Of a DNA stretch of 32,981 bases, positions 2,327 to 31,718 are shown in pieces; within the stretch, counting starts at the first letter, position 1, and each line of letters starts with the position of its first letter. Source of the stretch: Gemmatimonadota bacterium. GTDB lineage: Bacteria; Gemmatimonadota; Gemmatimonadetes; Gemmatimonadales; GWC2-71-9. The notes under the pieces are model-generated. The model saw only the letters and a program-made list of their open reading frames with translations, did not search any database and was not told the origin of the DNA. The DNA is taken from contig JAZDCY010000045.1 in assembly GCA_036679645.1 (NCBI GenBank), forward strand, positions 1 to 32,981. The letters are read 5' to 3'. Made by a program: the position numbers and the translations under genes.

Positions 2327-2668
2327 TCAGCCCCCCAGGCCGGCTGGTGCATCCGGCTCGCTGCCTGCGGTGCCGCCGCCACGACCAGATGTCGAATGGC
2401 CACCCTTGCCGCCCGCTACGGCGGCCAGCTCGAACTCGGCCAGCTCTTCTTCTTCATACGCCGCCCGCGGCAACACCGCCGTCAGGTGCGCGCCTGCCGG
2501 ATCGACGAAGCGGATCTTGAAGCCCTCGGGCAGCTTCCGCCCGGTTGCTTCCTCGACCGCCGCGCGACCATCCCGCAGCGCCAACGCCCGGAAGTCGGCG
2601 TCGTTCGCCGCCATGCGGAAGATCTTCTCCTGCGCTTCCTGCTGAGCCTGCTCGGTCCATTCGTGCAT
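2327..2668 (-). CDS. NHLP (nitrile hydratase-like leader) RiPP precursor
   Basis: Leader with DADFRALAL, LPEGFKIRFV and ELAEFELAAVAGG double-Gly site. 26-aa core KGGHSTSGRGGGTAGSEPDAPAGLGG. Next to an NHLM exporter. Confidence 0.9.
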   Translation of the reverse strand: MHEWTEQAQQEAQEKIFRMAANDADFRALALRDGRAAVEEATGRKLPEGFKIRFVDPAGAHLTAVLPRAAYEEEELAEFELAAVAGGKGGHSTSGRGGGTAGSEPDAPAGLGG

Positions 2669-4427: not shown

Positions 4428-4524
4428 GGTCTTACCAACCATCCCCCAATGAAGTACCGTCTCCTGTCCCACCCGCCCCGGCGTGACGGTCCGGATGGGC
4501 TCGTACCGTCCACAGCCAGGTCTC

Positions 4525-5757: not shown

Positions 5758-5784
5758 CCCCGCCTTCTCCGGAGGCGCCGCCCC

Positions 5785-12186: not shown

Positions 12187-12210
12187 GGGCAGTCCGCGGC
12201 AGGTCGTCGC

Positions 12211-13623
12211 ATGCTCGGGAGACCGCTCATGTTACTCGCGGCTGGATTCTTCCTCCTTTGTCGTGCGCTTTCCGCGCAGGCCCCCGGCGAAGTGGGGCCG
12301 ACGAGTGCCGATACCGTCGTCTTGGCCCTCGACGACGTGCTGCGCACGGCACTGGCGCAGAACCTCCGGCTCCGCGCCGCGTCGGCGGAGACCCGGGGCG
12401 CGGCAACCTTCCGAACCACGGCGTGGTCGCGATTCGACCCAGCAGTGAACGTCGGAGGCGAGTACAACGGGAGTGGCGTCGGCGTCCAGCTCGTCGGTGA
12501 GCTGCCGACGGGCGCCACGTACCTCCTCGGCTCGGTGGCGCCGTCGACCCTCCCCGGCGATCCCGTCTTCGCCGACGCGATCGTCGCGAGAATCGATCAG
12601 CCCGTGTTGCGCGGGCTGGGGCTCTACAGCGCGCGTAACGCCATTCGGGCGGCGGACGAGGGGGTGGAAGCGTCACGTGCCCGCCTGAGCCGCACGCGTG
12701 ACGAGGTGGCGGCCGTCGTCCGGCTGGCCTACGCGATCCTGGTGGAGCGGCACCGACAGGAGGCCACCGCCGAGCGCTCGGTGCGGCGCGCGCTGGAGCT
12801 GCTCGATGCCTACACGTCGCTCCGGGCCATCGAGAGGATCACCGAGGTGGACCTCATCACCGCGAAGCTGGGCGTAGCGTCGCGCCAGGCCACGCTGCTC
12901 CAGGTGCGTCGCGAGCGCCGGGCCGCCGAGGATGCGCTCCTGTTCGCGGTGTACGGCGCCGGAGCGCGCGCCGTGCTCGCCCGTGCAGGCGACGCCGTGT
13001 GGATCCCGCGGGACACGGTGGTCGACGCCCCGTACGTTCCCTCGATGGAGGACGCCACCGCACGCGCCCTCGCGGCGCGTCCCGATCTGGAGGCCGCGCG
13101 CCACCACGTGGCCCAGGCGCGGTACCGTTCGCAGCAGGCACGCAACGCGGCGCTTCCCACGCTCAACCTATCGGCGTCTTTCAGCAGCACCCGCAGCGAC
13201 ACCCTGCTGGGACCCGGCGTGGCGTTCGACGCGCGCGATCAGGGGTGGCGTTTCGGCGTGGTGCTGTCGCGCCCCTTGTGGAACTCGGGCGCCACTGCCC
13301 AGCGCGACCGGGCCACGGCCGCCGCCGATCAGACGGAGGCGCAGCTCATCGAGGCGGAGAACGTCGTGCGCCGGGAAGTGCGGGCCGCAGTCCGCGACAT
13401 CGAACTGGCGCGCGAGCAGGTGACCATCGCCGCGGACGCCTCGCGCCTGGCCCGCCAACAGTACGAGATGGAGCGCGAACGCCTGACGCTCGGGCTCACC
13501 GACATCTTCCGCGTACTCCAGTACGAGGAACAGGTGGGGACCGTGGAGCGGGCGGAGGCGGAGGCATGGCGGGCGTACGCGACGGCCGTTGTGCAGTACC
13601 GGTTGGCGATGGGGGAGGGCTAG
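12211..13623 (+). CDS. TolC-family outer membrane efflux protein
   Basis: Signal peptide; LDDVLRTALAQN, ALAARPDL, ALPTLNLS, ERERLTLG; last gene of the type I secretion operon. Confidence 0.85.
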   Translation: MLGRPLMLLAAGFFLLCRALSAQAPGEVGPTSADTVVLALDDVLRTALAQNLRLRAASAETRGAATFRTTAWSRFDPAVNVGGEYNGSGVGVQLVGELPTGATYLLGSVAPSTLPGDPVFADAIVARIDQPVLRGLGLYSARNAIRAADEGVEASRARLSRTRDEVAAVVRLAYAILVERHRQEATAERSVRRALELLDAYTSLRAIERITEVDLITAKLGVASRQATLLQVRRERRAAEDALLFAVYGAGARAVLARAGDAVWIPRDTVVDAPYVPSMEDATARALAARPDLEAARHHVAQARYRSQQARNAALPTLNLSASFSSTRSDTLLGPGVAFDARDQGWRFGVVLSRPLWNSGATAQRDRATAAADQTEAQLIEAENVVRREVRAAVRDIELAREQVTIAADASRLARQQYEMERERLTLGLTDIFRVLQYEEQVGTVERAEAEAWRAYATAVVQYRLAMGEG

Positions 13624-14223: not shown

Positions 14224-16128
14224 TCAGCTGCGGTGCTCTTCCGTCGCCAGGGCGCGAGCGATGTAGTCCGGCGGCACGGTCGTACGCGGCACGGCATGCG
14301 CGAACCACTCGCGCACATCGAGGCCCAGCCCATCCCCTTCCTGAAACCGGTACGTAGCATCTCGCAAGCCCTTCCCAAGAGCGTCGTGATCGGTGCCCGT
14401 CGGGTCGTGGAACGGGAGGCTGAACTCCGTGAAGACGTGGTCGCCCTGCAGCACACCGGTGAGCTGGATACCGTACTCCTCGGGGTTTTGCCCGACCGGG
14501 CTGTGTCGCGTGGTGACGAAGCGGTGCCAGTTTCCCGACTGAAGACATCCGGCTGCGAAGAGCTGTCGCACGTACTCGAGGCTGTCGATCGTCTCCTGAA
14601 GGGTTTCGGTCGGGAAGCCGTACATGAGGTACGCGTGGACGACGATTCCGTGCTCGCTGAAGTGCCGGGCGACCCGCGCGACCTGGGTGACGGAAACGCC
14701 TTTCTTCATCTTCTCCAGGAGCCGGTCGGATGCTACCTCGAGACCGCCGCTGACCAGGACGCATCCGGCGCGTGCCATGAGTTCGGTCAGCTCGCGCGTG
14801 AACGACTTCTCGAAGCGGATGTTCCCCCACCACGAAATCGAGAGATCCCGTTCGAGCAGGCGCGCGGACAGCATCCGTAGCAGGGCGGGGGGCGCCGCCT
14901 CGTCCACCCAATGAAATCCCGAGAGACCCGTCTCCGCGCGTAGCTGTTCGATGTGCTCGATGAGGCGGTCCGCCGTCTGCGGCTCGTAGCGCCGGATGTA
15001 ATCGAGCGTGGTGTCGCAGAACGAGCACTTGCGCCAGTAACACCCGTGCGCAAGCGTGAGCTTGTTCCATCGTTTCGACCAGATCCGGTGTGCCGGCGTC
15101 GCCGATGTGAGAACCGAGATGTATCGCTCGATGGGCAGACCGTCGTACACCGGCGTGTTCGCTTCGGCAAACGGGACATCCTGTTCGTTCCTGGAGGAAT
15201 GGTAGCTCACCTTACCGTCTACGCGCCGGAAGGTGCGGAAGAGACCCTCCGGGCCACGCTCGTTTCGCAGGTATTCGAGCAGGCACGAGAGGGGGCGCTC
15301 ACCGTCGTCCAGCGTGACGAAATCGAAATAGTCGAACAAGCGGGGGTCGGAGATCGCGCGAAGGTAGGTGTTGACGTACCCACCGCCGAGGGCGACGTGC
15401 ACGTCGGGTCGTTCACGCTTGATCACCTCGGCAATGCGGAAGGCACCGGCCACGTTACCGGGGAAGGGTGCGGACAGGCCAACCACGTCGGGCTCGTGCG
15501 TCGCGAGACCGTCGAGCGTGATCTCCCGGATGAGCTGGTTGGTTGGGGTCTCTCTCTGTTCCTCCAGAAAGCGGTGGACGGCATCGAACGCGGTCGCCGT
15601 GCCGACGTGGTCCGCGAACGAGTAGAGGGCGAACCCGGGATCGACCAGTGCGATGACGTCCGTGATGTCGAGCAGGTAGTAGCTCGCCGCCAGTTGCGCA
15701 CGCTCACCGTCTTCGAGCGACGCGACGTTGTGCGGCATCCCGGGGATGGGACAATGGTCGTCAAACAGCTGTCGCAGGCGTGCGCCTTCGGGCAGGTATC
15801 CGCGTTCGTTGAGGTGAACGCCCACCGCGGGGTCTTTGGTCTGGAGGTAGGACATGACCGGCTCGACGGTATCCAGATACCGGTCGAGATGGGTGAGGAA
15901 GTGCGTTCGATTCTGGAGGTCTCGGGGCCCGACCGGTTGGCATTGCCCGACCGCGTGGCCGACCCGTTGGAGTCCGCTCCGCGACAGCAGCCGGTGCGCC
16001 AACTCGAGCGACCAGTCGGCCTGATGCGCGTCGACGCCGATCGAGCGGAGATGGCCCGTGAGCGCGGCCGTTGACGGATACGGAGTGTTCAGGTCCGCCA
16101 TCGGAGGGATCAACAGCAGCACGCGCAT
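14224..16128 (-). CDS. Cobalamin-binding domain radical SAM protein
   Basis: PDVVGLSAPF...VALGGGYVN B12-binding region, TLDDGERPL, CX4CX2C motif GCYWRKCSFC, GGLEVASDRLL, HAYLMYGFPTET. Confidence 0.9.
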   Translation of the reverse strand: MRVLLLIPPMADLNTPYPSTAALTGHLRSIGVDAHQADWSLELAHRLLSRSGLQRVGHAVGQCQPVGPRDLQNRTHFLTHLDRYLDTVEPVMSYLQTKDPAVGVHLNERGYLPEGARLRQLFDDHCPIPGMPHNVASLEDGERAQLAASYYLLDITDVIALVDPGFALYSFADHVGTATAFDAVHRFLEEQRETPTNQLIREITLDGLATHEPDVVGLSAPFPGNVAGAFRIAEVIKRERPDVHVALGGGYVNTYLRAISDPRLFDYFDFVTLDDGERPLSCLLEYLRNERGPEGLFRTFRRVDGKVSYHSSRNEQDVPFAEANTPVYDGLPIERYISVLTSATPAHRIWSKRWNKLTLAHGCYWRKCSFCDTTLDYIRRYEPQTADRLIEHIEQLRAETGLSGFHWVDEAAPPALLRMLSARLLERDLSISWWGNIRFEKSFTRELTELMARAGCVLVSGGLEVASDRLLEKMKKGVSVTQVARVARHFSEHGIVVHAYLMYGFPTETLQETIDSLEYVRQLFAAGCLQSGNWHRFVTTRHSPVGQNPEEYGIQLTGVLQGDHVFTEFSLPFHDPTGTDHDALGKGLRDATYRFQEGDGLGLDVREWFAHAVPRTTVPPDYIARALATEEHRS

Positions 16129-17211: not shown

Positions 17212-18456
17212 ATGGGAGTAGAACTTCGTCCGCTCGGCGTCCGCTGCAACATCCACTGCCAGTACTGCTACCAGAATCCGCAGCGGGACGCGGGTAACCT
17301 CGCCGATTCCTACGATATCGACCGCATGCAGGCCGCAATCGAAGCGGACGGGTCGCACTTCACGCTCTTTGGTGGTGAGGCGTTGCTCGTTCCCGAGGCG
17401 GATCTCGAGCGCTTGTGGGCGTGGGGACTCGAGCGGTATGGCTACAACTCGGTCCAAACGAACGGGACGCTGATTTCCGACCGGCACATCGAGCTGTTCA
17501 AGAAGTACAAGGTGCACGTCGGGATCTCCGTCGATGGTCCAGGGGACCTCAACGACGGGCGCTGGGCCGGTACGTTGGAGCGGACGCGCGAGCTGTCGGC
17601 GCGAACCCACGAAGCCATCGAACGGCTCTGCAGCGAGGGCATCCCCCCTGCCCTCATCGTGACGCTCCACCGAAACAACGGGACGGCAGACAAGCTCCCG
17701 CAGATGCACGACTGGTTCCGGTACCTCGAGACGCTGGGCATCTCGTCGGCGAGGATTCACATCCTCGAGGTCGACAACGAGTGGGTGCGGAGCAAGTACG
17801 CGCTCACGATCGAGGAAAACCTCACGGCGTTCATGAGCTTTGCCGATCTCGAGCACGAACTCGAGACGCTCAAGCTCGATCTCTTCCACGACATGCGGAA
17901 TCTGCTGTTGGGCAACGATGGCCAGACGACCTGTGTGTGGAACGCGTGCGATCCGTACACCACCCGAGCCGTTCAGGGTGTCGAGGGGGACGGGCAGCGC
18001 AGCAATTGCGGCCGCACCAACAAGGACGGGATCGATTTTACCAAGGCGAATACCGAAGGGTTCGAGCGATACATCGCGTTGTATCACACCCCGCAGGAAG
18101 ACGGTGGGTGTAATGGGTGTCGCTTCTTCCTGATGTGTAAGGGACAGTGCCCGGGGACGGCCATCGACGGCGACTGGCGCAACCGCACCGAGCACTGTGA
18201 AGTCTGGAAGGGCCTCTACCGGCACGTCGAAGGGACGTTGCTCGATCAGGGGCAGCGGCCGCTGTCCGTCATGCCGGAGCGGAAGCTCGTGGAGCAGTTC
18301 TTCCTCGACACGTGGGCCGGAGGGTCGAACACTTCTATCGAGCAGGCGGTCAAGCGTCTCAACGAACGCGGCACGGCCGCCGCAGGCGCAGTGCACCAGG
18401 GCGTGCGGCACGGGGACTCGAACCACGGCGACCACACCGATCATGCCGCCAACTGA
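17212..18456 (+). CDS. Radical SAM/SPASM peptide maturase with C-terminal HxD tail
   Basis: CNIHCQYC, FGGEALL, QTNGTL, GISVDGP. SPASM-like Cys set TTCVWNAC...NCG...CNGCRFFLMCKGQCP...HC. Tail HGDSNHGDHTDH. Confidence 0.92.
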   Translation: MGVELRPLGVRCNIHCQYCYQNPQRDAGNLADSYDIDRMQAAIEADGSHFTLFGGEALLVPEADLERLWAWGLERYGYNSVQTNGTLISDRHIELFKKYKVHVGISVDGPGDLNDGRWAGTLERTRELSARTHEAIERLCSEGIPPALIVTLHRNNGTADKLPQMHDWFRYLETLGISSARIHILEVDNEWVRSKYALTIEENLTAFMSFADLEHELETLKLDLFHDMRNLLLGNDGQTTCVWNACDPYTTRAVQGVEGDGQRSNCGRTNKDGIDFTKANTEGFERYIALYHTPQEDGGCNGCRFFLMCKGQCPGTAIDGDWRNRTEHCEVWKGLYRHVEGTLLDQGQRPLSVMPERKLVEQFFLDTWAGGSNTSIEQAVKRLNERGTAAAGAVHQGVRHGDSNHGDHTDHAAN

Positions 18457-19948
18457 CCGCCTGGATTTCGTCCTGCACGATTTCACCCGGCTGAGCTGGG
18501 TAAGCGACGCGGCGCGAGACCTCTGGGGTCCTCGCCTGCACCGTGTGACCGAGGCCTGGTTCGAGATCGAATGGCGCGCGGTCCTCGCGGGCCTGCGCCG
18601 GTGTGGCGTCACGGTCACCACGCCGGAAGGACTCATCGAGCGCGCCGCCAAATGGGTCGGGCACGGGCTGAACGCGCTGCCCGTGGAGCTCCACGGCGCG
18701 CGCGACAGCTATGCCAGTACGGGCGAGAAAGCCCGCCTCGGCGAGCCGTTCGTGTTCCGCATCGCGGTCGGCATCCCCGAAGACGTGGCGGAATTCAAGC
18801 AGGTTTGGGACGCGGCGGACAATCGCGGCATCGGGGGGTTCCTCGGATATCCCGAGTGCTGCCTGGACTTTTTCGAGGAGCATTGGGTCGACGGCCAGAT
18901 GATCGATACGACGTGGCCGATGGCGGTCGCGAGCAGCACGTCGCCAAACGGCACGCGGGACCTCGAGATCACCGGACCGCCCGAAGCCAACATTCTGTGG
19001 CGCTGGATGGGCGCGCGCGCGGTGCCGCACCTCCCCTGCCGCAGCGACTGCGAGGCGACGGTCGAGTTCGGCCGCGCGCTGATCGACGTCGGGCGCGGGG
19101 CCGGGTTCGACGAAGAGATGGACTGGTTACTCGAGATCCTCTCGTGGCCGGTCGAGTGGTCGGCGCTCCATGGCATCGCGGAAATCAAGACGCCCATTCT
19201 CAAGGTCGTCTCCCGCGCGGACGCGACGCGGTCCAAGTACACGGTTCGGCGACCCGGAACGGCGTACCCCGAGGCCGGAGCGCAGGGGCTCAAGTTCCCG
19301 TATCAGATGCCGCGCAAGACGATCACGGAATCGCGCGGCTACAAGCGGGGTCTCGACAACCCGATCGAGGCCGCACGCGCGCGTCCCGGTTGGTACGCGA
19401 GCGACAACGGGTTCGCCTCGATCGCAGCGATGGACCAGGCGCACACGCCGATCATCGGAGTGGCCGATGCGACGCTCGATGGCGAGGCCGCCAGTGTCCT
19501 TGACCTCGGGTGCGGAAACGGCGCCCTGCTCGAAGGCCTTCGCGACGCCAATCCCAAGGTCGTCCCGTACGGCGTGGAGATCGATGCGGAGCGCCTGGAG
19601 CACGCCCGGACACTGTTCCCCGATCACGTCGAGAACTTCACGGTCGGGGACATGTTCAGCGAAGAGATCTGGCAAGCCGGCCGTCGCTACGCGCTGGTCC
19701 TGCTCATGCCCGGTCGGTTGTTGGAAGCCGGGCCCGAACGCGCCGCCTGGCTGCGCGAGCAGATCAAAGCGCATTGCGACCATGTACTCGTGTATGCCTA
19801 CGGAGACTGGCTCACCAAGTACCGCGACCTGCAGGGGTTGGCCCGACGCGCGGGCCTGTCGCTGCTCAGTTCGGGCTCGGGCGCAACGGTCAGTCTCGCA
19901 AAATACCGGAAAGCTGGCGAGCAGCTTTCCGAGGCTGTGACATCATAA
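18443..19948 (+). CDS. Cys-motif domain (DUF483-like) fused to a class I SAM-dependent methyltransferase
   Basis: FLGYPECC and PHLPCRSDC motifs; C-terminal VLDLGCGNG, YGVEID, VGDMF. ATG at 18443 overlaps the rSAM 3' end. Confidence 0.7.
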   Translation: MPPTDRLDFVLHDFTRLSWVSDAARDLWGPRLHRVTEAWFEIEWRAVLAGLRRCGVTVTTPEGLIERAAKWVGHGLNALPVELHGARDSYASTGEKARLGEPFVFRIAVGIPEDVAEFKQVWDAADNRGIGGFLGYPECCLDFFEEHWVDGQMIDTTWPMAVASSTSPNGTRDLEITGPPEANILWRWMGARAVPHLPCRSDCEATVEFGRALIDVGRGAGFDEEMDWLLEILSWPVEWSALHGIAEIKTPILKVVSRADATRSKYTVRRPGTAYPEAGAQGLKFPYQMPRKTITESRGYKRGLDNPIEAARARPGWYASDNGFASIAAMDQAHTPIIGVADATLDGEAASVLDLGCGNGALLEGLRDANPKVVPYGVEIDAERLEHARTLFPDHVENFTVGDMFSEEIWQAGRRYALVLLMPGRLLEAGPERAAWLREQIKAHCDHVLVYAYGDWLTKYRDLQGLARRAGLSLLSSGSGATVSLAKYRKAGEQLSEAVTS

Positions 19949-19988
19949 CACTATTTCCTACTCGTTGTCGAATGACTGGGAGGTCATG

Positions 19989-20699
19989 ATGAGTTCTGAC
20001 GAACGTGGCAAGAAGCCGGATCCGGAGGACCATGTCAAGAAAGACCCGGAAGGATCGAGTACAACCCCGGACGGTGACAAGCCAGGGGGCAAGAGCGATA
20101 TCAGCCGTCGAGGACTGATCCGGGCCGGCTGGAGCGTCCCCATCATCATGGGTGTGTCCCTCCCCAAGAACGCGTTCGCGCAGTACGCGCACAGCGACAC
20201 CGCCCCGCACGCCGACACCCACAACGACCACGGTGATCACAGCGACCACGGTGATGCGCCAGGTCAGATACACGAGGATGCCGGTCACAACGATCACGGT
20301 GACACGTTCATTCCCCACGCGGACATTCCGCACCAGGACTTCATCGAAATCCCGCACGCAGACATCGGAACGATCCCGCACGTCGATACCGGACTGCACG
20401 TCGATGTCCTGCCGCACATCGATATCCCGTCGTTGCACGGCGATCTGGGGCACGTGGATGTGACGCCTCACGCCGACCTCGCGCTCCACATCGACGTCAT
20501 TCCGCACACCGATGTCCCGCATGCGGACGCGTCCTTCCACGGCGATGTTGGTGTCCCGGGTATCCACGGCGACATCATCCCGCACGTCGACGTGGGTCAC
20601 GTGGACATCGTCCCCCACTTCGACGTCGGGCACTTCGATGTGGTCCCGCACTTTGATGTGGTCCCGCACGGCGACATCGGCGGTGGGTTCGGGTTCTAG
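19989..20699 (+). CDS. His-Xaa-Asp repeat protein, putative RiPP precursor with Tat-like leader
   Basis: GGGAGG SD before ATG ATG (19986/19989). Leader SRRGLIRAGWSVPIIMGVSLPKNAFA. 172-aa core from 20181 with 29 HxD motifs. Sits among peptide-modifying enzyme genes. Confidence 0.85.
   Translation: MSSDERGKKPDPEDHVKKDPEGSSTTPDGDKPGGKSDISRRGLIRAGWSVPIIMGVSLPKNAFAQYAHSDTAPHADTHNDHGDHSDHGDAPGQIHEDAGHNDHGDTFIPHADIPHQDFIEIPHADIGTIPHVDTGLHVDVLPHIDIPSLHGDLGHVDVTPHADLALHIDVIPHTDVPHADASFHGDVGVPGIHGDIIPHVDVGHVDIVPHFDVGHFDVVPHFDVVPHGDIGGGFGF
20220..20303 (+). repeat. 18-bp coding repeats (H-N/S-D-H-G-D)
   Basis: CACAACGACCACGGTGAT (20220), CACAGCGACCACGGTGAT (20238), CACAACGATCACGGTGAC (20286). Confidence 0.85.
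20631..20669 (+). repeat. 18-bp tandem coding repeat (HFDVVP x2)
   Basis: CACTTCGATGTGGTCCCG CACTTTGATGTGGTCCCG CAC, with one synonymous mismatch. Confidence 0.85.
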
Positions 20700-20715
20700 T
20701 ACCGACGTTTCGATT

Positions 20716-20759
20716 GGTCAACGCCCGCGGCGGAGCTTGCTTCGCCCGGGCGATTGGCT
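20716..20759 (+). promoter_or_regulatory. Stem-loop after the precursor gene (mRNA stabiliser or partial terminator)
   Basis: GGTCAA CGCCCG C GGCGGAGC TT GCTTCGCC CGGGCG A TTGGCT; no U-tract. Confidence 0.5.
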
Positions 20760-20785
20760 CTATATGGATGTAGGAGGTGGCTACG

Positions 20786-21925
20786 GTGAAAGTGGAAAGT
20801 GTCACGGACATCGACTGGAAGCGCACGCCTGAGCCCCAGGCGGATCAGTACGACACGGACGTAGCGGAACGTTTGGCCAAGGGGCGCGGCCCCGACGTGT
20901 CTGGACTCGAGAACGCCCCACGCATCTTCGATGGCGCCGTACCGATCGAGGAGACCACTGCGGAGTCGGTGCAGTTCCCCGAGTCGTGCGTGCCCGCACC
21001 GGCCGATCACCCGAACATTCAGCAGGCCGTCGAGTTGATCCGGCTCTGGCCGACCGTATTCACGCAGTGCCAGCGTCTGATCCGCAAAGCGAACTTCTTC
21101 GTCGACACGGCGGTGCCGGAGAAGGGGTTCATCGGCTCGCTGTCGCGGGCCGGAGCCGACGGGTTCGGGACCGTCGCCGTGACCGTGAACGATCCCGTGG
21201 CGCTGGCCGAGTCCATCGTGCACGAGATGGGGCACAACAAGTTGCGCGCGCTCGGGGTCGATTTTACCAGTGCCAAACGGATCGTCACGAATACCGAGGG
21301 CGATCAGTACAAGAGCCCCGTACGATACGACTGCCTGAGGCCTATGACGGCCATTCTGCATGCGATGTGGTCGTACACGTACTTGACGGCGCTCGATGTC
21401 GAGATCCTGCGCGCCTCGTCCGACCATGCGGTGAAACATCGTGTCGCGCAGCAATCACTGGCCCTGAACCTGCCCAGGTTGGACTTCGGGCTCGACGTGC
21501 TGCAGTCGCATGTGCAGACGGACGAGGCAGGGAAGCAGTTCTTCTTCGGGTTCTTCCAGTGGCTCGATCGGGTTCGTGCGGCCGGCTATGACATTCTCGA
21601 GCGGGTCGGCATCAAGCCCCTTCCGTTCGTCCACCCCGATGACGCGCAGGGCAAGACCAATGGACCCCGGCCGGCGCGGGTCAACGGCCTCCATCAGTAT
21701 CGGCTTGGCGAAGAGACGCTGATCTACGTCCCCGACGCCGAGAAGGCCCACGCGCTCAACCCGTCGGCCGTCGCCATTTTCGATCTGTGCGACGGCTCGC
21801 GTACGGTTCAGGACATCTGCCGCGAGTTGGGCCCGCTCGTGGGCAAAACGGCAGGCGAACTCACGCCGGACGTGGAGCAGGGCGTGACACAGCTCCGCGA
21901 GCTCGGCCTCCTCCAGCCGGACTGA
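20786..21925 (+). CDS. aKG-HExxH peptide beta-hydroxylase-like protein fused to a C-terminal PqqD/RRE domain
   Basis: AESIVHEMGHNKL...YKSPVRYDCLRPMTAILHA; C-terminal AHALNPSAVAIFDLCDGSRTVQDI...LRELGLL. AGGAGG lies 8 nt before GTG 20786 (alternative start 20777). Confidence 0.88.
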   Translation: MKVESVTDIDWKRTPEPQADQYDTDVAERLAKGRGPDVSGLENAPRIFDGAVPIEETTAESVQFPESCVPAPADHPNIQQAVELIRLWPTVFTQCQRLIRKANFFVDTAVPEKGFIGSLSRAGADGFGTVAVTVNDPVALAESIVHEMGHNKLRALGVDFTSAKRIVTNTEGDQYKSPVRYDCLRPMTAILHAMWSYTYLTALDVEILRASSDHAVKHRVAQQSLALNLPRLDFGLDVLQSHVQTDEAGKQFFFGFFQWLDRVRAAGYDILERVGIKPLPFVHPDDAQGKTNGPRPARVNGLHQYRLGEETLIYVPDAEKAHALNPSAVAIFDLCDGSRTVQDICRELGPLVGKTAGELTPDVEQGVTQLRELGLLQPD

Positions 21926-21931
21926 AGAGTC

Positions 21932-22783
21932 GTGCGGTCTGCGTCGCCTGCCACGACGATGGCCGTCGCGTTTCAAGGCTGCGCTGTAGCCGTCCGGTCG
22001 ACGGCAGTCGAGGTGATTGACGAGTTCCGGCGCGTCTGCGGTACCATGGTCGTCGTCCCGGACGCGGTCACTCCGGTTGGGCACCTGCAGGTCGATCGTA
22101 CCGGCGAGGTCTATGTCGTCAGCGGGGACACCGACGTGGCGCTCGGTGACGGGTCCCTGGCAGACGTCATGCGCTGCCTGCGCTATTCGGTCATCCAGCT
22201 CTTCATTCAAGCCTTTCCCGGCCTGTACTGGTTCCACGCGGGCGCTGTCGCCTGGGGGGGAAACGCGGTGCTGATTCCGGGCCACCGTGGGCGCGGCAAG
22301 AGCACGCTGGTGACCGGCCTTGGCGATCACGGGTGGGACTACCTGTCGGACGACGTGGTCCCGCTCGACCCGCAAACACACACGCTGCTGCCCCTCCCAT
22401 TCGCTCCTGCGAAGCGCGAGTACCCCGGGCGTCGGATGCGATCGGTGTGGCTCCGGACAACTCCCAAGACGGACGTGACCGTGCCTGGCGAGCGCGTGCG
22501 CAGCGGCCCGACGCCCGTTGCGGCATTCGTGATCCCCCGATACCGGCAGGACGCTCACACCAAGGTCGCCGCGTTCTCGCCAGCCCAGGCCGCCGCGTTG
22601 CTGCTGGAGAACTGCTGGAACTTCGGCGCGCCCCGGGCCAATGCCGTGCGTTACGTCTGCGCACTCGCGGGCCGGCTCCCGGCGGTCCGTGCCGTCTTCT
22701 CGGACGGGGCCGATGCGGCGCGCGTCCTCGCTGGCACGCGCGAAGAGTGGATGATGGACCGCGCCGCGGCGCGCGAGGCCTGA
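21932..22783 (+). CDS. HPr kinase-like (HprK-related) kinase
   Basis: FHAGAV, P-loop GHRGRGKSTL, YLSDDVVPL. Confidence 0.85.
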   Translation: MRSASPATTMAVAFQGCAVAVRSTAVEVIDEFRRVCGTMVVVPDAVTPVGHLQVDRTGEVYVVSGDTDVALGDGSLADVMRCLRYSVIQLFIQAFPGLYWFHAGAVAWGGNAVLIPGHRGRGKSTLVTGLGDHGWDYLSDDVVPLDPQTHTLLPLPFAPAKREYPGRRMRSVWLRTTPKTDVTVPGERVRSGPTPVAAFVIPRYRQDAHTKVAAFSPAQAAALLLENCWNFGAPRANAVRYVCALAGRLPAVRAVFSDGADAARVLAGTREEWMMDRAAAREA

Positions 22784-22788
22784 GCGTC

Positions 22789-23994
22789 GTGGATATACAG
22801 CAGTTCAAGGTCCTGGGCAGGGAAGTCGACGAGGCATGGCGTGCGCGGCAATACGACGAGTTTCAGTTTTCCGAGGTTGCGCTCGAGGTGCTCGGCAACG
22901 CCTCACTATCGACATCCGTCGATCTGCAGTCGATTCTCGAGCGGTGTTTGGATCCCGCGGCGAACGAGTTTCGGATAAGGGGATCGTTTGGCGATCTCCC
23001 GTTGATCGTCTACGAAACACCGCAGTTCTACGTTCAGGTGCTGATGTGGACCACCGCCACCACCAACATTCATCAGCACGGCTTCTCCGGCGCGTTCCGC
23101 GTGTTTGCCGGATCGAGCATCCACAGCCAGTACGAGTTCCACACCCGCGAGCGCATCAACTCGCGTATCTCGGTTGGGGATGCCGAGCTCAAGACCATCG
23201 AGCTGCTCCGTCAGGGACAGACCCACGAGATCATCTCGGGCAGCGGCCTGACGCATGCGCTGTTCCATCTCGATCTGCCGAGCGTCTCTGTAGTGGTTCG
23301 GACGCACGCGGAACCGTGGTCGTCACCGCAGATGACCCTTTACCCGCCGCACCTCGCGGTCGATACCGTGACGTTGGGTTCCGATCCGGTGTGCAACGCC
23401 ATCGCCAAATGCCTGCGAGTCATGCGACACGCCCAGGACCCCCGGATCGCCGACTCCATCATCTCCCTGGTACCACGCCTCGACTTCGCACGCATCTACC
23501 AGGTCTTTCAGCGCCATCGACAGCAGCTGGGTAGTGAGGAAGGGCGCTTCCTAGATGCCGTCCGGGAGCGACATGGTCAGCTGACCGACCACATGCTCGA
23601 ATCGATGCAGTACGAGCGCCGACTCGAGAAGATCCGCGAGCTACGCGGGACGGTGCGAGATCTCGAGTTGCGGTTCTTTCTGGGTGTGCTGCTCAATGCG
23701 CCTAACCAGAAGCGCATCTACGAACTTGTGGCGGCCCAGTATCCCGAGGTGGATCCGGAGGACAAGGTGGTGGAATGGCTTACCGGTCTCCTGCGCACCG
23801 GAGAGTTCCCGGCCAAGGCGGGTGTGTCTCTCCTGAGGCCCTTGTTGCGCGGCTCGAGCCTCGAAGAGACCGTCCGGGCCGTTGGGGACGCAATCGACGA
23901 TACGGAGGCCCAACCCCCAGCGGCTCTCGTGGCTACGATGTGTGAACAAATCAAGGGCGTTCCGGCCTTCGACCGACTGTGGATTCGGAACTGA
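22789..23994 (+). CDS. Cupin (cysteine dioxygenase-like HxH...H) domain protein
   Basis: VQVLMWTTATTNIHQHGFSGAFRVFAGSSIH...LTHALFHLD; helical C-terminal extension. Confidence 0.65.
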   Translation: MDIQQFKVLGREVDEAWRARQYDEFQFSEVALEVLGNASLSTSVDLQSILERCLDPAANEFRIRGSFGDLPLIVYETPQFYVQVLMWTTATTNIHQHGFSGAFRVFAGSSIHSQYEFHTRERINSRISVGDAELKTIELLRQGQTHEIISGSGLTHALFHLDLPSVSVVVRTHAEPWSSPQMTLYPPHLAVDTVTLGSDPVCNAIAKCLRVMRHAQDPRIADSIISLVPRLDFARIYQVFQRHRQQLGSEEGRFLDAVRERHGQLTDHMLESMQYERRLEKIRELRGTVRDLELRFFLGVLLNAPNQKRIYELVAAQYPEVDPEDKVVEWLTGLLRTGEFPAKAGVSLLRPLLRGSSLEETVRAVGDAIDDTEAQPPAALVATMCEQIKGVPAFDRLWIRN

Positions 23995-25868
23995 GGCCCG
24001 CGGGACAGGCGCACGTCCCGGCTGACACGCCTGTGGCGCTCGTGAACATGCCGTTTGCCACGATACGGCACCCGTCGATTCAGATCGGGTTGCTCCAGGC
24101 CCACGGGTGCCGCGCCGACATTCCGCTACGCAGCCTGTACGCCAACCTCGACTTCGCGGCACGCATCGGTTTTCAGCTCCACGAGGCGCTGGCGATTCAT
24201 CGCGGGGCCCTCATCGGAGAGTGGTTGTTCACGAAGGCTGCGTTTCCGGAGCATGAAGCCGCCGACGAGTTCCCTCGACGGTACGGGAACATCGTCGATG
24301 AGGTCGCCGATGTCGCCGGCGTGCCGCGCGCGGATGTGGTGGCCATCAGGGACGTCCACGCGCCCGCGTTCGTCGCCGAGATGGCCGACCGGCTCGTCGA
24401 AGCGGGCACACGGGTCGTGGGCTTCACGTCCACCTTCGAGCAGAACGTGGCCTCCCTCGCGCTGGCACGTGCGGTCAAGGAGCGCGATCCCGCCATCGCG
24501 ACGGTGTTCGGCGGGGCCAACTACGACGCCGACATGGGTCGCGCGTATCTCGACGCGTACCCCTGGATCGACATCGCGGTGGCCGGTGAGGCGGACGACA
24601 TCTTCGTCCCGCTGATCCAGGCCCTCCTGGACGGAGCCGCCATACCGGAACTCATCGGCGTCAACACACGGACCAGTAACGGCAACGGCACCCGGGGGAC
24701 GTACCGCGGGTCGATGGACGCGCTCCCCGTGCCAAACTACGACGACTACTTCGAGGCCATTCGGCGCAATGGTTTCCATCAAGAGGAGATCAAGTGGAGC
24801 CTCGCCCTACCGTTTGAATCGTCGCGTGGCTGTTGGTGGGGTGCCAAGCATCACTGCACCTTCTGCGGGTTGAACGGCATGGCGTGGCGGGCCAAGTCGG
24901 TGGAAACGGTGGTGTCGGACATCAGCACCTTGGCGACGAAGTATCATGTCAGTTCCTTCCTCGCCGTCGACAACATCATTGGTGTTGACATGCTGCGCGG
25001 CCTGGTGTCGCAGATGACCGAGGAGGAGTACGACTACGATTTCTTCTACGAGATCAAGGCGAACCTCACGAGGGCGCAGATCCGCGGCATGCGCGACGCC
25101 GGTATTCTCCGCGTCCAGCCGGGTATCGAGAGCCTGAGTTCGCCGGTCCTCTCCCTGATGCGGAAGGGCATCACGGGAATCCAGAACATCAACACGCTAC
25201 GCTGGTTGCGATTCTACGGCGTGCAGGCAATCTGGAATATCCTCTTCGGCTTCCCGGGCGAAGCACAGGAAGATTACGACCGCCAGCTCGAGGTGATCGA
25301 GCTGACCCCTCATCTCCGGCCCCCGAAAGGGGCCGGCCGCATCTGGCTGGAGCGGTTTGGGCCGTACTTCAAGGAGGCGGAGGCCTTTGGGTTCGACAAC
25401 CTGCGGCCCGACGAGTGCTACTCGTATATCTATCCCCCGCCGCTCTCGCTGCACGATGCCGCGTATTTCTTTCAGAGCGATCCCACGCAGACGCTCACCG
25501 ACGACGTGTACGCTCCCACGCAACGAGCCGTCGAGCGGTGGCAGGAGATGTGGCGGCAGCCCAAGCGTCCCTATCTCCTCGTCACCAAGACGCACCCTGG
25601 GATCAGGGTCATCGACGGGAGGAGCAACCAGCAAGACCCCACCACGCGGTTCTACAAGGAGCCGCTGTCGCACGTCTACCTGTATTGCAGCGATCGGCCG
25701 CGTGGCATGCGTTCGATTCTCGAGTTCGCTTCCGAGAAGCGGCTCGAGTCATCCGATATCGAGGGCGACGTGCAGGACGTGCTGCAGACGTGGGTGCGTG
25801 ATGGCGTGATGATAGAGGAGGATGGGCGATATCTGAGCCTGGCACTCCCGCGGATGCCGTGGCGTTAG
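23979..25868 (+). CDS. B12-dependent RiPP maturation radical SAM C-methyltransferase (TIGR03975-like)
   Basis: ALVNMPF, PSIQIGLL, VVGFTSTFEQN, FGGANY, CX7CX2C motif SRGCWWGAKHHCTFCGLN, QPGIESLS, WNILFGFPGE. Confidence 0.92.
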   Translation: MDSELRPAGQAHVPADTPVALVNMPFATIRHPSIQIGLLQAHGCRADIPLRSLYANLDFAARIGFQLHEALAIHRGALIGEWLFTKAAFPEHEAADEFPRRYGNIVDEVADVAGVPRADVVAIRDVHAPAFVAEMADRLVEAGTRVVGFTSTFEQNVASLALARAVKERDPAIATVFGGANYDADMGRAYLDAYPWIDIAVAGEADDIFVPLIQALLDGAAIPELIGVNTRTSNGNGTRGTYRGSMDALPVPNYDDYFEAIRRNGFHQEEIKWSLALPFESSRGCWWGAKHHCTFCGLNGMAWRAKSVETVVSDISTLATKYHVSSFLAVDNIIGVDMLRGLVSQMTEEEYDYDFFYEIKANLTRAQIRGMRDAGILRVQPGIESLSSPVLSLMRKGITGIQNINTLRWLRFYGVQAIWNILFGFPGEAQEDYDRQLEVIELTPHLRPPKGAGRIWLERFGPYFKEAEAFGFDNLRPDECYSYIYPPPLSLHDAAYFFQSDPTQTLTDDVYAPTQRAVERWQEMWRQPKRPYLLVTKTHPGIRVIDGRSNQQDPTTRFYKEPLSHVYLYCSDRPRGMRSILEFASEKRLESSDIEGDVQDVLQTWVRDGVMIEEDGRYLSLALPRMPWR

Positions 25869-25887
25869 GCGGCCCGACGGCCTGGGT

Positions 25888-26904
25888 TCAGAGCGCGAGG
25901 TAGCCTACGGTCGGGTGCGCCCGCAGCATGTATCGGAACGAGTCCGGGTACTCGGAGAGACCGAGGAGATGCTCGATGCGCGCGATGTGGGCCATGGTGT
26001 AGGTTGCGAATGCCGAGAGGCAGCGCAACTCCTCGAGTCCGAAACGGACACCGCGCGCGCGCTGGTATTCTTCGACAAAAGCCGCTGCTTCTTCCGGCGT
26101 GACCGTGCCGCGTGCCGCCCCCCGCGCAAAGCTCACCGCTGCCCCCCCGACCAGCCAGAGCTCGTCGATGATGCGGAGGCTGTCCCAATCGTATATGACC
26201 GAGACGGCGTTACCGCGGTATCGGAAGTGCTGGTCTGTCCAGTCGTTGTGTGCGAGGACCGCGGGGTACTTCGCGTGTTCATGCACGACCTCCTTGGCGG
26301 GTCGCGCGATGCGATCGATCCACTCGGCCTCCGATGCCCGGTTGCTCGCGTCCAGCACGTGATGGGGCGGCCAGAGGGTGTCCGGTGGTAGCCACGGCGA
26401 TGGAAGCCCCGGTGTGTCGCGTAGGGGCTCGGCGCGGTCGATCAGTTCGGCGAGGGTCGAGGCCATGACGGCACGGATGGCGGGGTCGTGGGGATCGCCT
26501 CGCTCCCCGTCGGCCACGAACGCATCGATCGTCATCCGGCCAACGGGGAGCTCGACCGGCGGGTGCACCACCGCAGGGCATGGAAACCCACGGGTCGCGA
26601 GCACGGCCTGCACGCTCGAGGTGGCGGTGAGGGACGCGAGCGGTGCGGTGGGATTGTGCACCTTGACGAAGATACGGCGGCCGTCCTCGAGGGTCAGGCT
26701 GATGGCCGCTCCGTCCGCGCACACGGCCGAGGGGCATCCGCTGACGGCCGCGCCGAGGCGATGGCGACAGAACCCATCGACGACTCGCGCGACCTGCTCG
26801 GCGCCCGCGCCGCGAAATAAGCCCCGTGGAATGTCCGCGCTCGGGGCGGTATCTATTGCGCGCGTGAGTTGCGCGGTAAGCTCGTCCATCCCGATAGGCG
26901 GCAT
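25888..26904 (-). CDS. APH/choline kinase-like phosphotransferase
   Basis: RIFVKVH, GFPCPAV, Brenner-type LAHNDW, VIYDWDS. Start 26904 or 26889. Confidence 0.8.
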   Translation of the reverse strand: MPPIGMDELTAQLTRAIDTAPSADIPRGLFRGAGAEQVARVVDGFCRHRLGAAVSGCPSAVCADGAAISLTLEDGRRIFVKVHNPTAPLASLTATSSVQAVLATRGFPCPAVVHPPVELPVGRMTIDAFVADGERGDPHDPAIRAVMASTLAELIDRAEPLRDTPGLPSPWLPPDTLWPPHHVLDASNRASEAEWIDRIARPAKEVVHEHAKYPAVLAHNDWTDQHFRYRGNAVSVIYDWDSLRIIDELWLVGGAAVSFARGAARGTVTPEEAAAFVEEYQRARGVRFGLEELRCLSAFATYTMAHIARIEHLLGLSEYPDSFRYMLRAHPTVGYLAL

Positions 26905-27023
26905 CTCGTTGGCGGTTAAGGTACGAACTCCAAACCTGTCGGACCAGCCCGGGCATGCCCGATACGCGAAGAGCAAACCGCGTCCCGCGCGCTGGCGCAC
27001 CATGGTCGTCACACGGTGAACCC

Positions 27024-28229
27024 GTGAGCGCGGGCGGCGATCGCCGGGAAACCGCCTTGCTGCTCGAGGTGTGCCGCCCGGACCGGCAGGCTGAGCGCAT
27101 TCGACGTGCGTTTGGCGAGGTGCCGGCGGGACACGGCGTCGTGACTCGAGCCATCGCGCTCGACGTGGGGCCGCTCTTCTTTGCCGCGCTTCGTGAGGTG
27201 GCGTGCCTGGATGAGTTCCCCGAGCAGACCCGCGCGACGCTCTCGAGGGCGTACTATCGCGAAGCGGCGGTCAACGCGCGGGCGCACGCGCGGTTGGAAG
27301 AGGTACTAGCCTGGCTGAGCCGCGAGGGAATCGACACGGTGCTGCTCAAGGGCGCGGCGCTTGCGGAACCGGTCTACGGCGACCTCGCGGTGCGCCACAT
27401 GCGCGACTTGGATCTTCTCGTCCCGGAATCCGGGCTGCGATCGACCCAGCGAATCCTCGAGGGCCACGGGTACGTGCGCAGTGAGGCGTGGCACTCGGCC
27501 GAGTGGTACGAGACCGCGCACCACCACCTGGTCCCGATGCACTCCCCGGACGGCGCCGTGACGATCGAAGTGCACCGCCACATAGTGCGTTCCACCGATC
27601 CCATCTCGATCGATGTCCATCGGTTATGGGAACGCACGCGCGCGGTCCGGATCGGTACGACCGATACGCGGTCGCTTGCACCGGTCGACCTGCTCCTGCA
27701 TGCGGCGGTGCACCGGACGCTGGCCGGCGAGTTCGTCGGCCAGATGCAGACGCTGTGTGATATCGCGACCATCGTGCATCGTTTTGGCAGCGACATCGAC
27801 TGGGACGATTTGCTCGAGTGGGCTCCCGGCCGCAAGGCGGCCAAGTACCTCGCCTACCCGTTGCGCTGGGCCGCGGCGTTGTTGCATGCGCCGGTGCCCG
27901 CCGCGGTCATGACAGATCTTGGCGCACGCATGGCCCCGACGGGTCGCGCCCATGCGCTGCTCGACCGTTGGGGAAGGGCGGTGAGCACGTGGCCGGGCGC
28001 GGTGACGTCGCCGCGCCGCGCGTGGCTGTGGAACGACCTGCTCGTAGCACTGCTCGGAGCGAACCACGCGTCCGGGGTCGGTGCCATCGTGGGCGTTCTG
28101 TCGCGCGGTCTGATCACGTCGGCTCGAAAGACGGTGCCGCGATTAGGCGTGTTCCTTCCGATTTACGCGGTAGCGATTCACCCGTTCGTGCTGGTGTGGC
28201 GCTGGCTGGCGCGGCGTCGCCGTCGTTGA
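27024..28229 (+). CDS. Nucleotidyltransferase family protein (NTP_transf_5-like)
   Basis: VLLKGAALAEPVYGDLAVRHMRDLDLLV, IEVHRH, LLLHAAVH, LCDIA. Start is approximate. Confidence 0.88.
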   Translation: MSAGGDRRETALLLEVCRPDRQAERIRRAFGEVPAGHGVVTRAIALDVGPLFFAALREVACLDEFPEQTRATLSRAYYREAAVNARAHARLEEVLAWLSREGIDTVLLKGAALAEPVYGDLAVRHMRDLDLLVPESGLRSTQRILEGHGYVRSEAWHSAEWYETAHHHLVPMHSPDGAVTIEVHRHIVRSTDPISIDVHRLWERTRAVRIGTTDTRSLAPVDLLLHAAVHRTLAGEFVGQMQTLCDIATIVHRFGSDIDWDDLLEWAPGRKAAKYLAYPLRWAAALLHAPVPAAVMTDLGARMAPTGRAHALLDRWGRAVSTWPGAVTSPRRAWLWNDLLVALLGANHASGVGAIVGVLSRGLITSARKTVPRLGVFLPIYAVAIHPFVLVWRWLARRRRR

Positions 28230-28345
28230 TGATCTTCGGCCTTGGACGTTCAGCCTGGAGGCCCGGTGGCTTCTGGCGCTTGTGTGGTGTGAGGAGGCAG
28301 GCGTAGGGACTCGATACAGTCCCCGATGGGCGCGGGAACCCCCGT

Positions 28346-28380
28346 CCCTCCCGGCCCTCGCGGAGCGAGGGCACGGAGGG
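28346..28380 (-). terminator. GC-rich hairpin in the tRNA 3' trailer
   Basis: GCCCTCGC-GGA-GCGAGGGC stem (28354-28372), extendable by CCCTCC/GGAGGG; no clear U-tract. Confidence 0.4.
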
Positions 28381-28387
28381 CCGGGGA
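28367..28387. repeat. att-like direct repeat, copy 2 (tRNA-Ser 3' end)
   Basis: Identical 21-mer to 2083-2103. Confidence 0.85.
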
Positions 28388-28456
28388 TTCGAACCCCGAT
28401 GCGCTTGCACGCGGCGGTTTTCAAGACCGCTGCCTTACCGTTAGGTCTAGCCCTCC
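28374..28456 (-). tRNA. tRNA-Ser(UGA)
   Basis: GGAGGGC/GCCCTCC acceptor stem with G discriminator. Anticodon arm GCGGT-CTTGAAA-ACCGC, long variable arm GCGTGCAAGCGC, T arm GGGGTTCGAATCCCC. CCA is not encoded. Confidence 0.96.
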
Positions 28457-28701
28457 CAGGACGGTAAGGTAATCGGGATCAGGAAGTTGCCCAAACCGGC
28501 CTCGCCTGAGGTGCTCGGGCTCAGCCTCCGCAACACGCACGTCGGTACGGAAGGTTGCACGTTCTTGTTGGCAGGCCTAAACGCTAGGTCGTAGAAACGC
28601 TCCGGCCATTCTCAGAATGATGCTCCTCTTGAGTGCGCCCAGCACTATGATCGCGGGAAACGGTAGAACCGTCCCCCACCCACCAGCGATCGCCTATATT
28701 C

Positions 28702-28890
28702 ATGAGGATTCGTGATCTGATTCGACTGCTCGAGCGCGACGGGTGGTACCTTGCCCGCACTCGCGGGAGCCATCGACAGTTCAAGTACCCGTCCAAGCGG
28801 GGTGTGGTGACTGTCGCAGGCAAAGCGCGTGATGATCTGGCACCGGGGACCTTGAACAGTATTCTGAAGCAGGCGGAGATTGAGCTATGA
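28702..28890 (+). CDS. hicA: HicA toxin (type II TA mRNA interferase)
   Basis: LERDGWYLARTRGSHRQFK...VTVAG...DLAPGTLNSILKQA. Confidence 0.93.
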   Translation: MRIRDLIRLLERDGWYLARTRGSHRQFKYPSKRGVVTVAGKARDDLAPGTLNSILKQAEIEL

Positions 28891-29099
28891 GAATTCTAGT
28901 AATCGTGGAGCGGACGCCAACCGGTTTTTCCGCGTTTTCCCCGGACGTGCCGGGATGTGCCGCGACCGGTAGCACGCAGGAAGAAGTTGAGGCCGTCATG
29001 CGGGACGCGATTGCACTCCATCTCAACGGCCTCAAGGCCCAAGGGTGCAACGTGCCCGAACCGCACGCGTACGCGACCTATGTCGAGGTCGCCGCGTGA
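28887..29099 (+). CDS. hicB: HicB antitoxin (short form)
   Basis: FSAFSPDVPGCAATGSTQEEV...AIALHL; ATGA overlap with hicA. Confidence 0.92.
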   Translation: MRILVIVERTPTGFSAFSPDVPGCAATGSTQEEVEAVMRDAIALHLNGLKAQGCNVPEPHAYATYVEVAA

Positions 29100-29136: not shown

Positions 29137-29547
29137 TCAGGCCAAAAAGCGTTCGATCTTCTCTCTAATATCCGGTGGCGCCGCAACGGCCTCGAAGCTG
29201 TCCATTGAAACGAAAACCAGCGTAATCAATGCGGTCACACTTGGCCTTCCGTCGACCGATCCGTCGATGATCAGACAGAGACTGCTCTCGCTCATTTCCT
29301 CCACCGATAGCTGCAACTGAAGTAGGTCGCCCAGCCGCGTAGGACGCCGGAAGTCGCATTCGATTCTCACCGCCGGAATGCCAATTCGCCGATCTTGCAC
29401 GAGGGTCCTGATATCCTGCCCGATATCCTTGGCGAACCAATCCTCAATGAGGTTGTTGAACATGTCGAGATACCGCGGATAGAACACCATACCAGCGGGA
29501 TCGGTGTGTGCGAATCCTATTCGTTGGTGGCCGGCGAACGTTGCCAA
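29137..29547 (-). CDS. 4-hydroxybenzoyl-CoA-type (hotdog) acyl-CoA thioesterase
   Basis: FAHTDPAGMVFYPRY, ECDFRRPTRLGD. Confidence 0.88.
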   Translation of the reverse strand: MATFAGHQRIGFAHTDPAGMVFYPRYLDMFNNLIEDWFAKDIGQDIRTLVQDRRIGIPAVRIECDFRRPTRLGDLLQLQLSVEEMSESSLCLIIDGSVDGRPSVTALITLVFVSMDSFEAVAAPPDIREKIERFLA

Positions 29548-29689
29548 TGGAAGCGTTCCTCGTGGCCAAGAGGCCGGTAGCGGGGTGAATCCCGGACTCG
29601 TAACTTATGTCCCTTCACATGCCGTAGCGATAGACTGACTCGCTCGAGGCAAGAGGCCCGATAAAGCGTCCTTCCCAAACTCGCTTGAG

Positions 29690-30817: not shown

Positions 30818-30881
30818 TCAACGCGCGCTCTGTGCGCGCACCAGAAACGTTTTGCTGGGTTACCCAACAGGAGCAAGCCAA

Positions 30882-31673: not shown

Positions 31674-31718
31674 CGTTGATACGAGAGGCGGCGGGTTTGG
31701 CGGCTAGACGAGGTCGGG

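Follow-up and report, generated by a model that had tools for sequence, protein, structure and literature searches.

Organization of the Locus

The window, by which we mean the whole stretch of 32,981 nucleotides that was analysed, contains a group of genes (locus B, 17212-28229) that includes a precursor-like protein of 236 amino acids (19989..20699, + strand) belonging to no Pfam or NCBIfam family and having P0001 as a homolog. Translation most likely starts from the ATG at 19989, with a GGAGG ending 5 nt upstream, and runs to a stop at 20699. Upstream is a radical SAM/SPASM enzyme, the companion of HxD arrays (17212..18456, +), that lacks an N-terminal RRE and whose best NCBIfam matches are to cyclophane maturases (AmcB, DynA, YhhB and GrrM), with scores well short of the cut-off in every case. 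Its C-terminal tail (about 18400-18453) itself bears several H-x-D triads, as is also the case for some homologs (L003). The enzyme is followed by its conserved partner (18443..19948, +), in which an uncharacterised Cys-motif domain is fused to a methyltransferase domain.

Downstream of the precursor are an aKG-HExxH domain (TIGR04267, above cut-off) with a C-terminal PqqD/RRE domain (20777..21925, +; PF05402, E 8.8e-10, nt about 21662-21922), an HprK-like kinase (21932..22783, +; TIGR04352, 72 bits against a cut-off of 200), a 401-aa ORF that matches no family and is cupin-like by eye only (22789..23994, +), a B12-binding radical SAM enzyme of the RiPP C-methyltransferase subfamily (23979..25868, +; TIGR03975, 596 bits, above cut-off), an ORF on the opposite strand that is phosphotransferase-like by eye with a weak NCBIfam match only (25888..27012, -) and an NTP_transf_5 nucleotidyltransferase (26955..28229, +; PF14907, E 1.3e-45). 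The initial annotation had stated that locus B encodes neither a peptidase nor an exporter, and this holds in that Pfam and NCBIfam scans of the locus-B proteins (17212-28229) recognised no peptidase or transporter family, a result to be read strictly as "none recognised" because Pfam assigns no family to three regions, namely the 401-aa ORF at 22789, the ORF at 25888 and the N-terminal domain of the protein at 18443. Neither a lasso cyclase nor a B2 protease was recognised among the 30 ORFs scanned, and promoter and terminator scans gave hits at chance level.

A separate NHLP-type cluster spans 2327-2668(-), 2781-4625(-), 4483-13623(+) and 14224-16128(-) of the window, with genes for a double-Gly precursor, a GNAT protein, a BTAD regulator, a HlyD/C39-ABC/ABC/TolC exporter and a B12 radical SAM enzyme; its C39 peptidase/ABC exporter (5785-13623) lies about 6 kb upstream of the precursor of locus B and has its own NHLP precursor with the canonical double-Gly site ELxAVAGG (2327-2668, -). 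Beyond locus B there is a tRNA-like sequence near 28340-28430, ahead of two small ORFs that are HicA/HicB toxin-antitoxin-like by eye (28617-29099, +), so placed that an island boundary is possible there. The remainder of the window (29137-32981) is of lower GC content (0.57-0.61), with thioesterase, class V aminotransferase, cyclase and indolepyruvate oxidoreductase-like genes.

The Precursor and Its Leader

The precursor consists of a charged N-region (residues 1-38), a leader in which a twin-arginine motif is combined with WxxPxI (residues 39-64) and a 172-aa core containing 29 His and 29 Asp, every one of which is found within an H-x-D triad (29 triads). A single-sequence model of this core is of low confidence (pLDDT 39.6), with no folded passenger apparent in it. 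The leader, SRRGLIRAGWSVPIIMGVSLPKNAFA, is the translation of 20103-20180 (+), is followed by QY and contains SRRGLI, WSVPII and AFA|Q exactly as they had first been read. The twin-arginine motif S-R-R-G-L-I-R (20103..20123, +; RR at residues 40-41, nt 20106) is conserved in homologs and has L and I where the Tat consensus, given as S-R-R-x-F-L-K in PMC3712460, has F and L. W-S-V-P-I-I (20130..20147, +; W at residue 48, nt 20130) lies in the hydrophobic region and matches the RRE-binding leader motif [Y/W]xxPx[L/V/I/F/A] that was defined by experiment, as described in PMC13381572. A-F-A|Q (20172..20183, +; AFA at residues 62-64, ending at nt 20180) is a predicted signal peptidase I site whose A and Q are invariant in 14 aligned leaders, and Tyr66 (20184..20186, +) is found at W+18, a position that invites comparison with residue counts in homologs and, inferentially, with the spacing in LppA.

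The best 13-residue Kyte-Doolittle mean of the leader is 1.54, as compared with 1.12-1.77 for seven other RRxF-type signals of the genome selected by a rule of our own. The genome has matches above cut-off to TatC, to the TatA family and to signal peptidase I, and the sole signal peptidase I match is on contig C4, outside locus B. The initial annotation had also noted that the leader has no double-Gly site; the consensus is indeed absent, but a GG is present at residues 33-34 of the N-region, and it is missing from 13 aligned homologous leaders.

The motif alone carries little meaning, since six-frame translation of the genome yields 211 occurrences of a loose version of it, RR-x(4-9)-[WY]xxPx[IVL]. 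However, this motif is present in only 1 of 13 Tat-like N-termini of the genome as chosen by our own selection rule, and conservation extends over the entire leader (see below). Homologs must be sought through the leader or the neighboring genes, for a search with the full-length precursor returned one relative only because the core is of low complexity.

A Leader Family with Variable Cores

A profile built from 14 leader sequences gave 400 matches at E<=1e-3 among 1.84 billion cluster representatives (50% identity clusters), while the window leader matched 0 Pfam or NCBIfam families at E<=10. As judged from these alignments the leader is a large uncatalogued family carried by very variable cores, including long HxD repeats, tails of only a few residues (L089, L112), Pro-rich tails and one Hint domain. 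In the last case (L091:256-927(-), P0134) the leader is joined to a Hint-like domain with a PF13403 match just under cut-off (E 6.7e-6). The consensus of the best 150 of the 400 matches is RRxL[LI]xAGWxxP[VA][VI]-x5-P-x4-AQ.

Conservation of RR and AxA in homologous precursors had been put forward at the outset as a point on which the dual role of the leader could fall; the homologs did not refute it, and comparison favours both of its halves. Among the 149 that could be parsed of the best 150 matches the first motif is RR in 143, KR in 5 and RQ in 1, the cleavage site is AxA in 114, another small-x-A in 32 and absent in 3, and the RRE motif has W in 99%, P in 100% and V/I in 97%, counts that are partly circular because the profile itself selected the sequences. 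Where the first Arg is replaced it is by Lys only (KR), with KK in 0/149. The RR lies at a median position of 30 in homologs, 35% of which have it farther in than residue 35. Of the 105 homologs in which the AxA-[QED] site could be located, 86 have S, T or Y directly after it, for the most part at W+17 or W+18. When run against 151 genomes of the phylum of L006 the leader profile found no true member outside L006's own genome, with one spurious match.

Linkage of the Leader to an RRE and a Kinase

A degenerate leader pattern retrieved 60 loci on 58 metagenome contigs, and removal of 2 chance matches left 56. A PqqD/RRE gene is beside the leader in 42 of these, 10 are uninformative because their contigs stop no more than 634 nt downstream and the other 4 are genuine negatives (L085, L092, L097 and L134; L013 is apparently the same sequence as L092), so that linkage is observed in 42/46 informative contigs. 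After clustering the proportion is 36/40 at 90% identity and 24/28, plus one mixed cluster, at 70%. By way of background, the window's own genome of 4.05 Mb has 3 PqqD domains. Further WxxP leaders with no nearby RRE are L144/L147.

Among the 42 PqqD-linked contigs an HprK-like gene is found in 36, the other six contigs being only 1.0-2.5 kb long, an NTP_transf_5 gene in 15 and HExxH in 2, and the RRE usually stands alone. By these numbers the kinase is the constant partner of the RRE, with the HExxH fusion a local addition. The initial annotation had the leader recruiting the HExxH-fused RRE; the link to the RRE stands, on co-occurrence and on a weak complex prediction (see below), while the notion that the RRE is chiefly that of the HExxH enzyme does not. 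The gene order of the window, HExxH-PqqD fusion included, is reproduced in L088 and L106, and L010 contains a PqqD-HExxH fusion along with an additional free PqqD. All four same-phylum genomes with a strong leader match (4/4) encode a short peptide of about 55-60 aa together with PqqD, HprK-like kinase and NTase genes, and by eye no exporter or peptidase was seen in these four minimal cassettes.

Elsewhere in the genome of the window, on contig C38 (L149:2683-3183, -), a PqqD domain is fused in cis to a segment with a twin-arginine motif, LxxPxV and AxA|Q, ending in a short Cys/Asp-rich tail, with HprK-like and NTP_transf_5 genes on either side. The RR is retained in 9/9 members of this fusion family (the C38 protein and eight relatives), and such cis fusions tie RREs to twin-arginine leaders. 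The RR of these proteins comes at about residue 90, preceded by a folded PqqD domain, an arrangement that fits recognition better than it does ordinary Tat targeting. A third PqqD cassette, on contig C98 (L148:344-3708), comprises kinase, NTase, PqqD and methyltransferase-like genes, and no twin-arginine precursor was seen in the 6 kb examined.

A stricter pattern for an actinobacterial variant was found in 1/301 genomes, in two copies, one in a PqqD/NTase/HprK/signal-peptidase locus and the other an orphan. The first of these, L146 (G609:C1:843000-861000), is an actinobacterial polysaccharide locus with a WxxPxI twin-arginine protein, PqqD, NTase and HprK-like genes and its own S26 signal peptidase, and is a bridge towards the layout of the linear polyphosphorylated peptides (LPPs) discussed below.

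Loci Selected by the Radical SAM Gene

A second set of 46 loci from many phyla was picked by the radical SAM neighbor rather than by the leader. Here 24/46 loci have a twin-arginine HxD precursor, and the remainder have HxD arrays without RR, or none that could be found. WxxPx[IV] is present in 10 of the 24 twin-arginine precursors and in eight of these a PqqD gene directly follows; of the other two, L013 has no PqqD within 10 kb and L017 ends at a contig edge, so that 8/9 assessable loci are PqqD-linked, or 9/10 when the window is counted. By comparison, PqqD was found in 0/14 loci whose precursors lack the full WxxP motif, as scored with our own profile, and when 13 of the corresponding genomes (all but that of L005) were searched with the Pfam PqqD model, no match fell in these loci or overlapped them. 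Two borderline cases, L003 (W, no P) and L021 (WxxPxA, with shorter spacing), were scored as lacking the motif. The contrast is clustered by lineage, amounting to 1 independent motif-RRE pair when supported branches are counted and 3 when all are, with a sign test that is not significant; quick trees were used, from which L043, L046 and L047 were left out on account of short alignments. The Fisher p of 7.6e-6 (9/10 vs 0/14) was discarded as evidence because related loci are not independent.

The RR is present in these radical-SAM-selected precursors with or without WxxP. All 14 RRE-less loci retain the RR and a hydrophobic stretch, and mostly also a cleavage site, with a lipobox-like Cys at the end in nine and textbook RRxF signals in L023 and L044. 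Export features are thus kept without the RRE, whereas W-P goes with it. That the RR and cleavage motifs are present where both RRE and W are lacking, and that AxA and lipobox endings interchange, points to the export machinery, and it is likely that the precursor is exported by Tat. The window joins two modules, an HxD radical-SAM system and an RRE/kinase leader, and offers a contrast between systems with and without an RRE.

Several further observations were made in these loci. Twin-arginine lipoprotein-type HxD precursors are found in L002, L004-L007, L009, L032, L041 and L046, and a single W-type leader, that of L134, also terminates in a lipobox, for a total of 10 loci; their sequences make these products candidates for RiPP-like molecules that are lipidated and exported by Tat. 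The radical SAM family by which the loci were picked is also found beside very large HxD-array proteins (about 900-1570 aa) in which no twin-arginine leader was seen (L022, L025, L026, L027, L033, L034, L038-L040, L042 and L045). In L011, L012, L015 and L016 the RRE/kinase cassette is followed by Wzz/ParA-type and Wzy_C polysaccharide genes, resembling the capsule-locus setting described for LPPs (PMC13381572).

Predicted Binding of the Leader by the RRE

The prediction of a complex between leader and PqqD domain, which the initial annotation had suggested as a check, scores 0.58, with 0.02 for the best of 3 controls; the runs agree in >=92% of contacts and the partner pLDDT is >=67. On calibration the score mark was reached by 116/157 solved complexes and 2/215 mismatches, and a score of 0.58 has to be read in light of the range at <=0.60 holding only 18 solved complexes along with both mismatches. 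The value may also reflect memory, since similar complexes (9x8z, 5v1u and 6jx3) have already been solved. The predicted complex therefore lends weak support to binding.

The RRE profile matches LppB (9x8z) and TbiB1 (5v1u), each of which was solved with a leader peptide. In LppB the proline kink of the leader is fixed by Asn33, as described in PMC13381572, and an invariant Asn of the window-type RRE appears in sequence alignments to correspond to this residue. In a single-sequence fold of the PqqD fusion the leader segment has a pLDDT under 50. Overall, we consider it likely that WSVPII is bound by the PqqD/RRE domain.

Proposed Mechanism and Alternatives

On balance we lean towards a leader that does both jobs, serving as a handle for the RRE and then as a twin-arginine export signal. 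The PqqD/RRE domain would grip the WxxPxI segment and present the precursor to the adjacent HprK-like kinase and, at the locus of the window, to the HExxH oxygenase with which it is fused. Modification of the HxD repeats by the radical SAM enzyme and its partner would probably not require an RRE, because these two are found with Tat-type precursors having neither WxxP nor RRE. The modified product would leave via Tat, with housekeeping signal peptidase I cutting at AFA|Q, and binding of the RRE may hold back export until modification is complete, much as NapD may do for NapA. We infer binding, every modification, export and cleavage from what was observed, namely sequence, conservation, gene linkage and the presence of Tat and signal peptidase genes.

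More broadly, and with a confidence that falls somewhat short of even, we propose that a single 26-residue sequence serves as RRE-bound leader and Tat signal alike throughout a widespread class of exported, RiPP-like peptides and proteins, with the RRE acting as a Tat-proofreading gate and the housekeeping signal peptidase as leader peptidase. In the window this portable tag would have been added to the Tat signal of an HxD-repeat radical-SAM system that is otherwise independent of an RRE, so that a large secreted product, likely one that binds metal, would also be tailored by kinase, nucleotidyltransferase and HExxH enzymes.

One might instead regard the sequence as an RRE leader alone, the twin-arginine segment being a relic or a surface for enzyme recognition, with a product that is cytoplasmic or exported by other means and a leader that is removed by another protease, possibly the HExxH enzyme. 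The distance of the RR from the N-terminus (residues 40-41), its internal location behind a folded domain in all 9/9 fusion proteins and the occurrence of tiny cores are consistent with this picture, as are the description of an HEXXH enzyme with proteolytic activity (PMC12636437) and the use of an ABC pump by LPPs, which have the same RRE, kinase and NTase (PMC13381572). However, the RR and cleavage motifs are kept where both RRE and W are missing, AxA and lipobox endings are switched and locus B has no recognised exporter, so that we consider this reading unlikely.

Conversely, the leader could be a Tat signal alone, with WxxPxI a family signature of the hydrophobic region and the RRE either binding elsewhere (to the core or to another peptide) or linked for historical reasons. 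W-type leaders that are orphans with respect to a nearby RRE (L013/L092, L085, L097, L134 and L144), the small number of independent motif-RRE pairs and the finding that the Sec signal of bufferins is dispensable for modification (PMC11626156) argue in this direction, and the actinobacterial pair of copies neither rescues nor kills the case for a generic h-region motif. Yet the 42/46 linkage to PqqD spans unrelated cores, some of them only a few residues long, so that the leader is nearly the sole thing left for the RRE to bind; the motif fits the experimentally defined [Y/W]xxPx[L/V/I/F/A] (PMC13381572), and the contrast of 0.58 with 0.02 in the complex prediction, while weak, is in the same sense. 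We judge a pure Tat signal to be quite improbable.

Finally, cutting of the precursor at GG 33-34 and export by the NHLP-type C39 peptidase/ABC exporter (5785-13623) was rejected as most improbable, for although a complete exporter is nearby and the N-region contains a GG, that exporter has its own canonical double-Gly precursor, GG 33-34 is not conserved and the ABC-transporter cluster is shared with the window in only 2/46 radical-SAM loci (L009 and L035).

Comparison with Known Systems

The closest known system to the dual-function leader proposed here is that of the linear polyphosphorylated peptides (Popov et al. 2026, PMC13381572), whose genes lppA-K-B-S-D-N are described in that paper as restricted to Bacillota. 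Both systems combine an RRE, an HprK-like kinase and an NTP transferase with no macrolactam cyclase, and both place a conserved [Y/W]xxP leader on variable cores. In both, the distance from the motif to A-Q-[S/T/Y] is 16-18 residues and leader removal is by an enzyme of signal-peptidase-I type, which at the window is predicted only. They differ in that LPP clusters come with a SipW-like peptidase and an MsbA-like pump of their own, neither of which was recognised in 17212-28229, whereas the window has a twin-arginine signal, W in place of Y and additional radical SAM, HExxH and methyltransferase genes. The LPP leader, moreover, is YxxPxVLxHQxIxFETxxS with Ser3 phosphorylated, while the window leader differs in its C-terminal half and a Tyr occupies the corresponding position. 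In LppA the motif Tyr comes 18 residues before the Ser3 of the core A-Q-S that is phosphorylated (PMC13381572), and by analogy the spacing of Tyr66 would equal this distance. The same paper describes an S3Y variant that LppK did not phosphorylate, which counts against the dual-function model here because the window precursor has Tyr66 at that position. The words "Tat", "twin-arginine" and "signal peptide" are absent, as whole words, from the main text of PMC13381572.

The set of paeninodin-type lasso systems, as described in PMC13381572, consists of a B1 RRE binding WxxPxL, an HprK kinase and an NTP transferase. It shares with the window the WxxP motif, a discrete PqqD-type RRE, a kinase and an NTase, and differs in that the window has no recognised lasso cyclase or B2 protease and in that its core is a 172-aa HxD repeat. 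The system of the window thus works like the LPP and paeninodin tailoring set, yet it falls outside the LPPs by its peptidase, pump and leader.

On the export side the relevant precedent is NapD, which binds the twin-arginine signal of NapA (Grahl et al. 2012, PMC3712460), a single Tat signal peptide with overlapping roles in transport and partner binding. NapD differs in being a chaperone for cofactor loading whose target is a helical epitope covering the RR motif, whereas the RRE would recruit modifying enzymes and would contact the hydrophobic region, which, by analogy to lasso complexes, would be extended. The RiPP precursors of bufferins (PMC11626156) and DAG-RiPPs (PMC13056109) are described as relying on housekeeping export and signal peptidase I/II, like the product proposed here, but with signals that are Sec or lipoprotein in type and not Tat; DAG-RiPP systems are expected in PMC13056109 to be leader-independent or follower-guided.

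The NCBIfam "HPr-rel-A system" (TIGR04352 kinase, TIGR04353 PqqD chaperone) also has PqqD and HprK-like genes side by side, and the window proteins differ from it in scoring far under the cut-offs (72/200 and 17.7/35, respectively). To our knowledge no substrate has been assigned to that system. In the RiPP logic known to us, the leader, a device for enzyme recognition, is separate from export. No account of a Tat leader bound by an RRE turned up in the literature searched; subscription journals and the supplements of PMC13381572 may hold one.

A Tat signal that is also an RRE handle would, if confirmed, merge leader and export functions, supply a substrate for many orphan PqqD/HprK/NTase cassettes, explain clusters with neither protease nor exporter and provide a portable tag for modify-then-secrete engineering. 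The homologs constitute a natural experiment in which the same radical SAM system occurs with W and RRE present or absent. Each half of the proposal has a precedent, NapD-NapA for a Tat signal with partner binding and the LPPs for an RRE leader.
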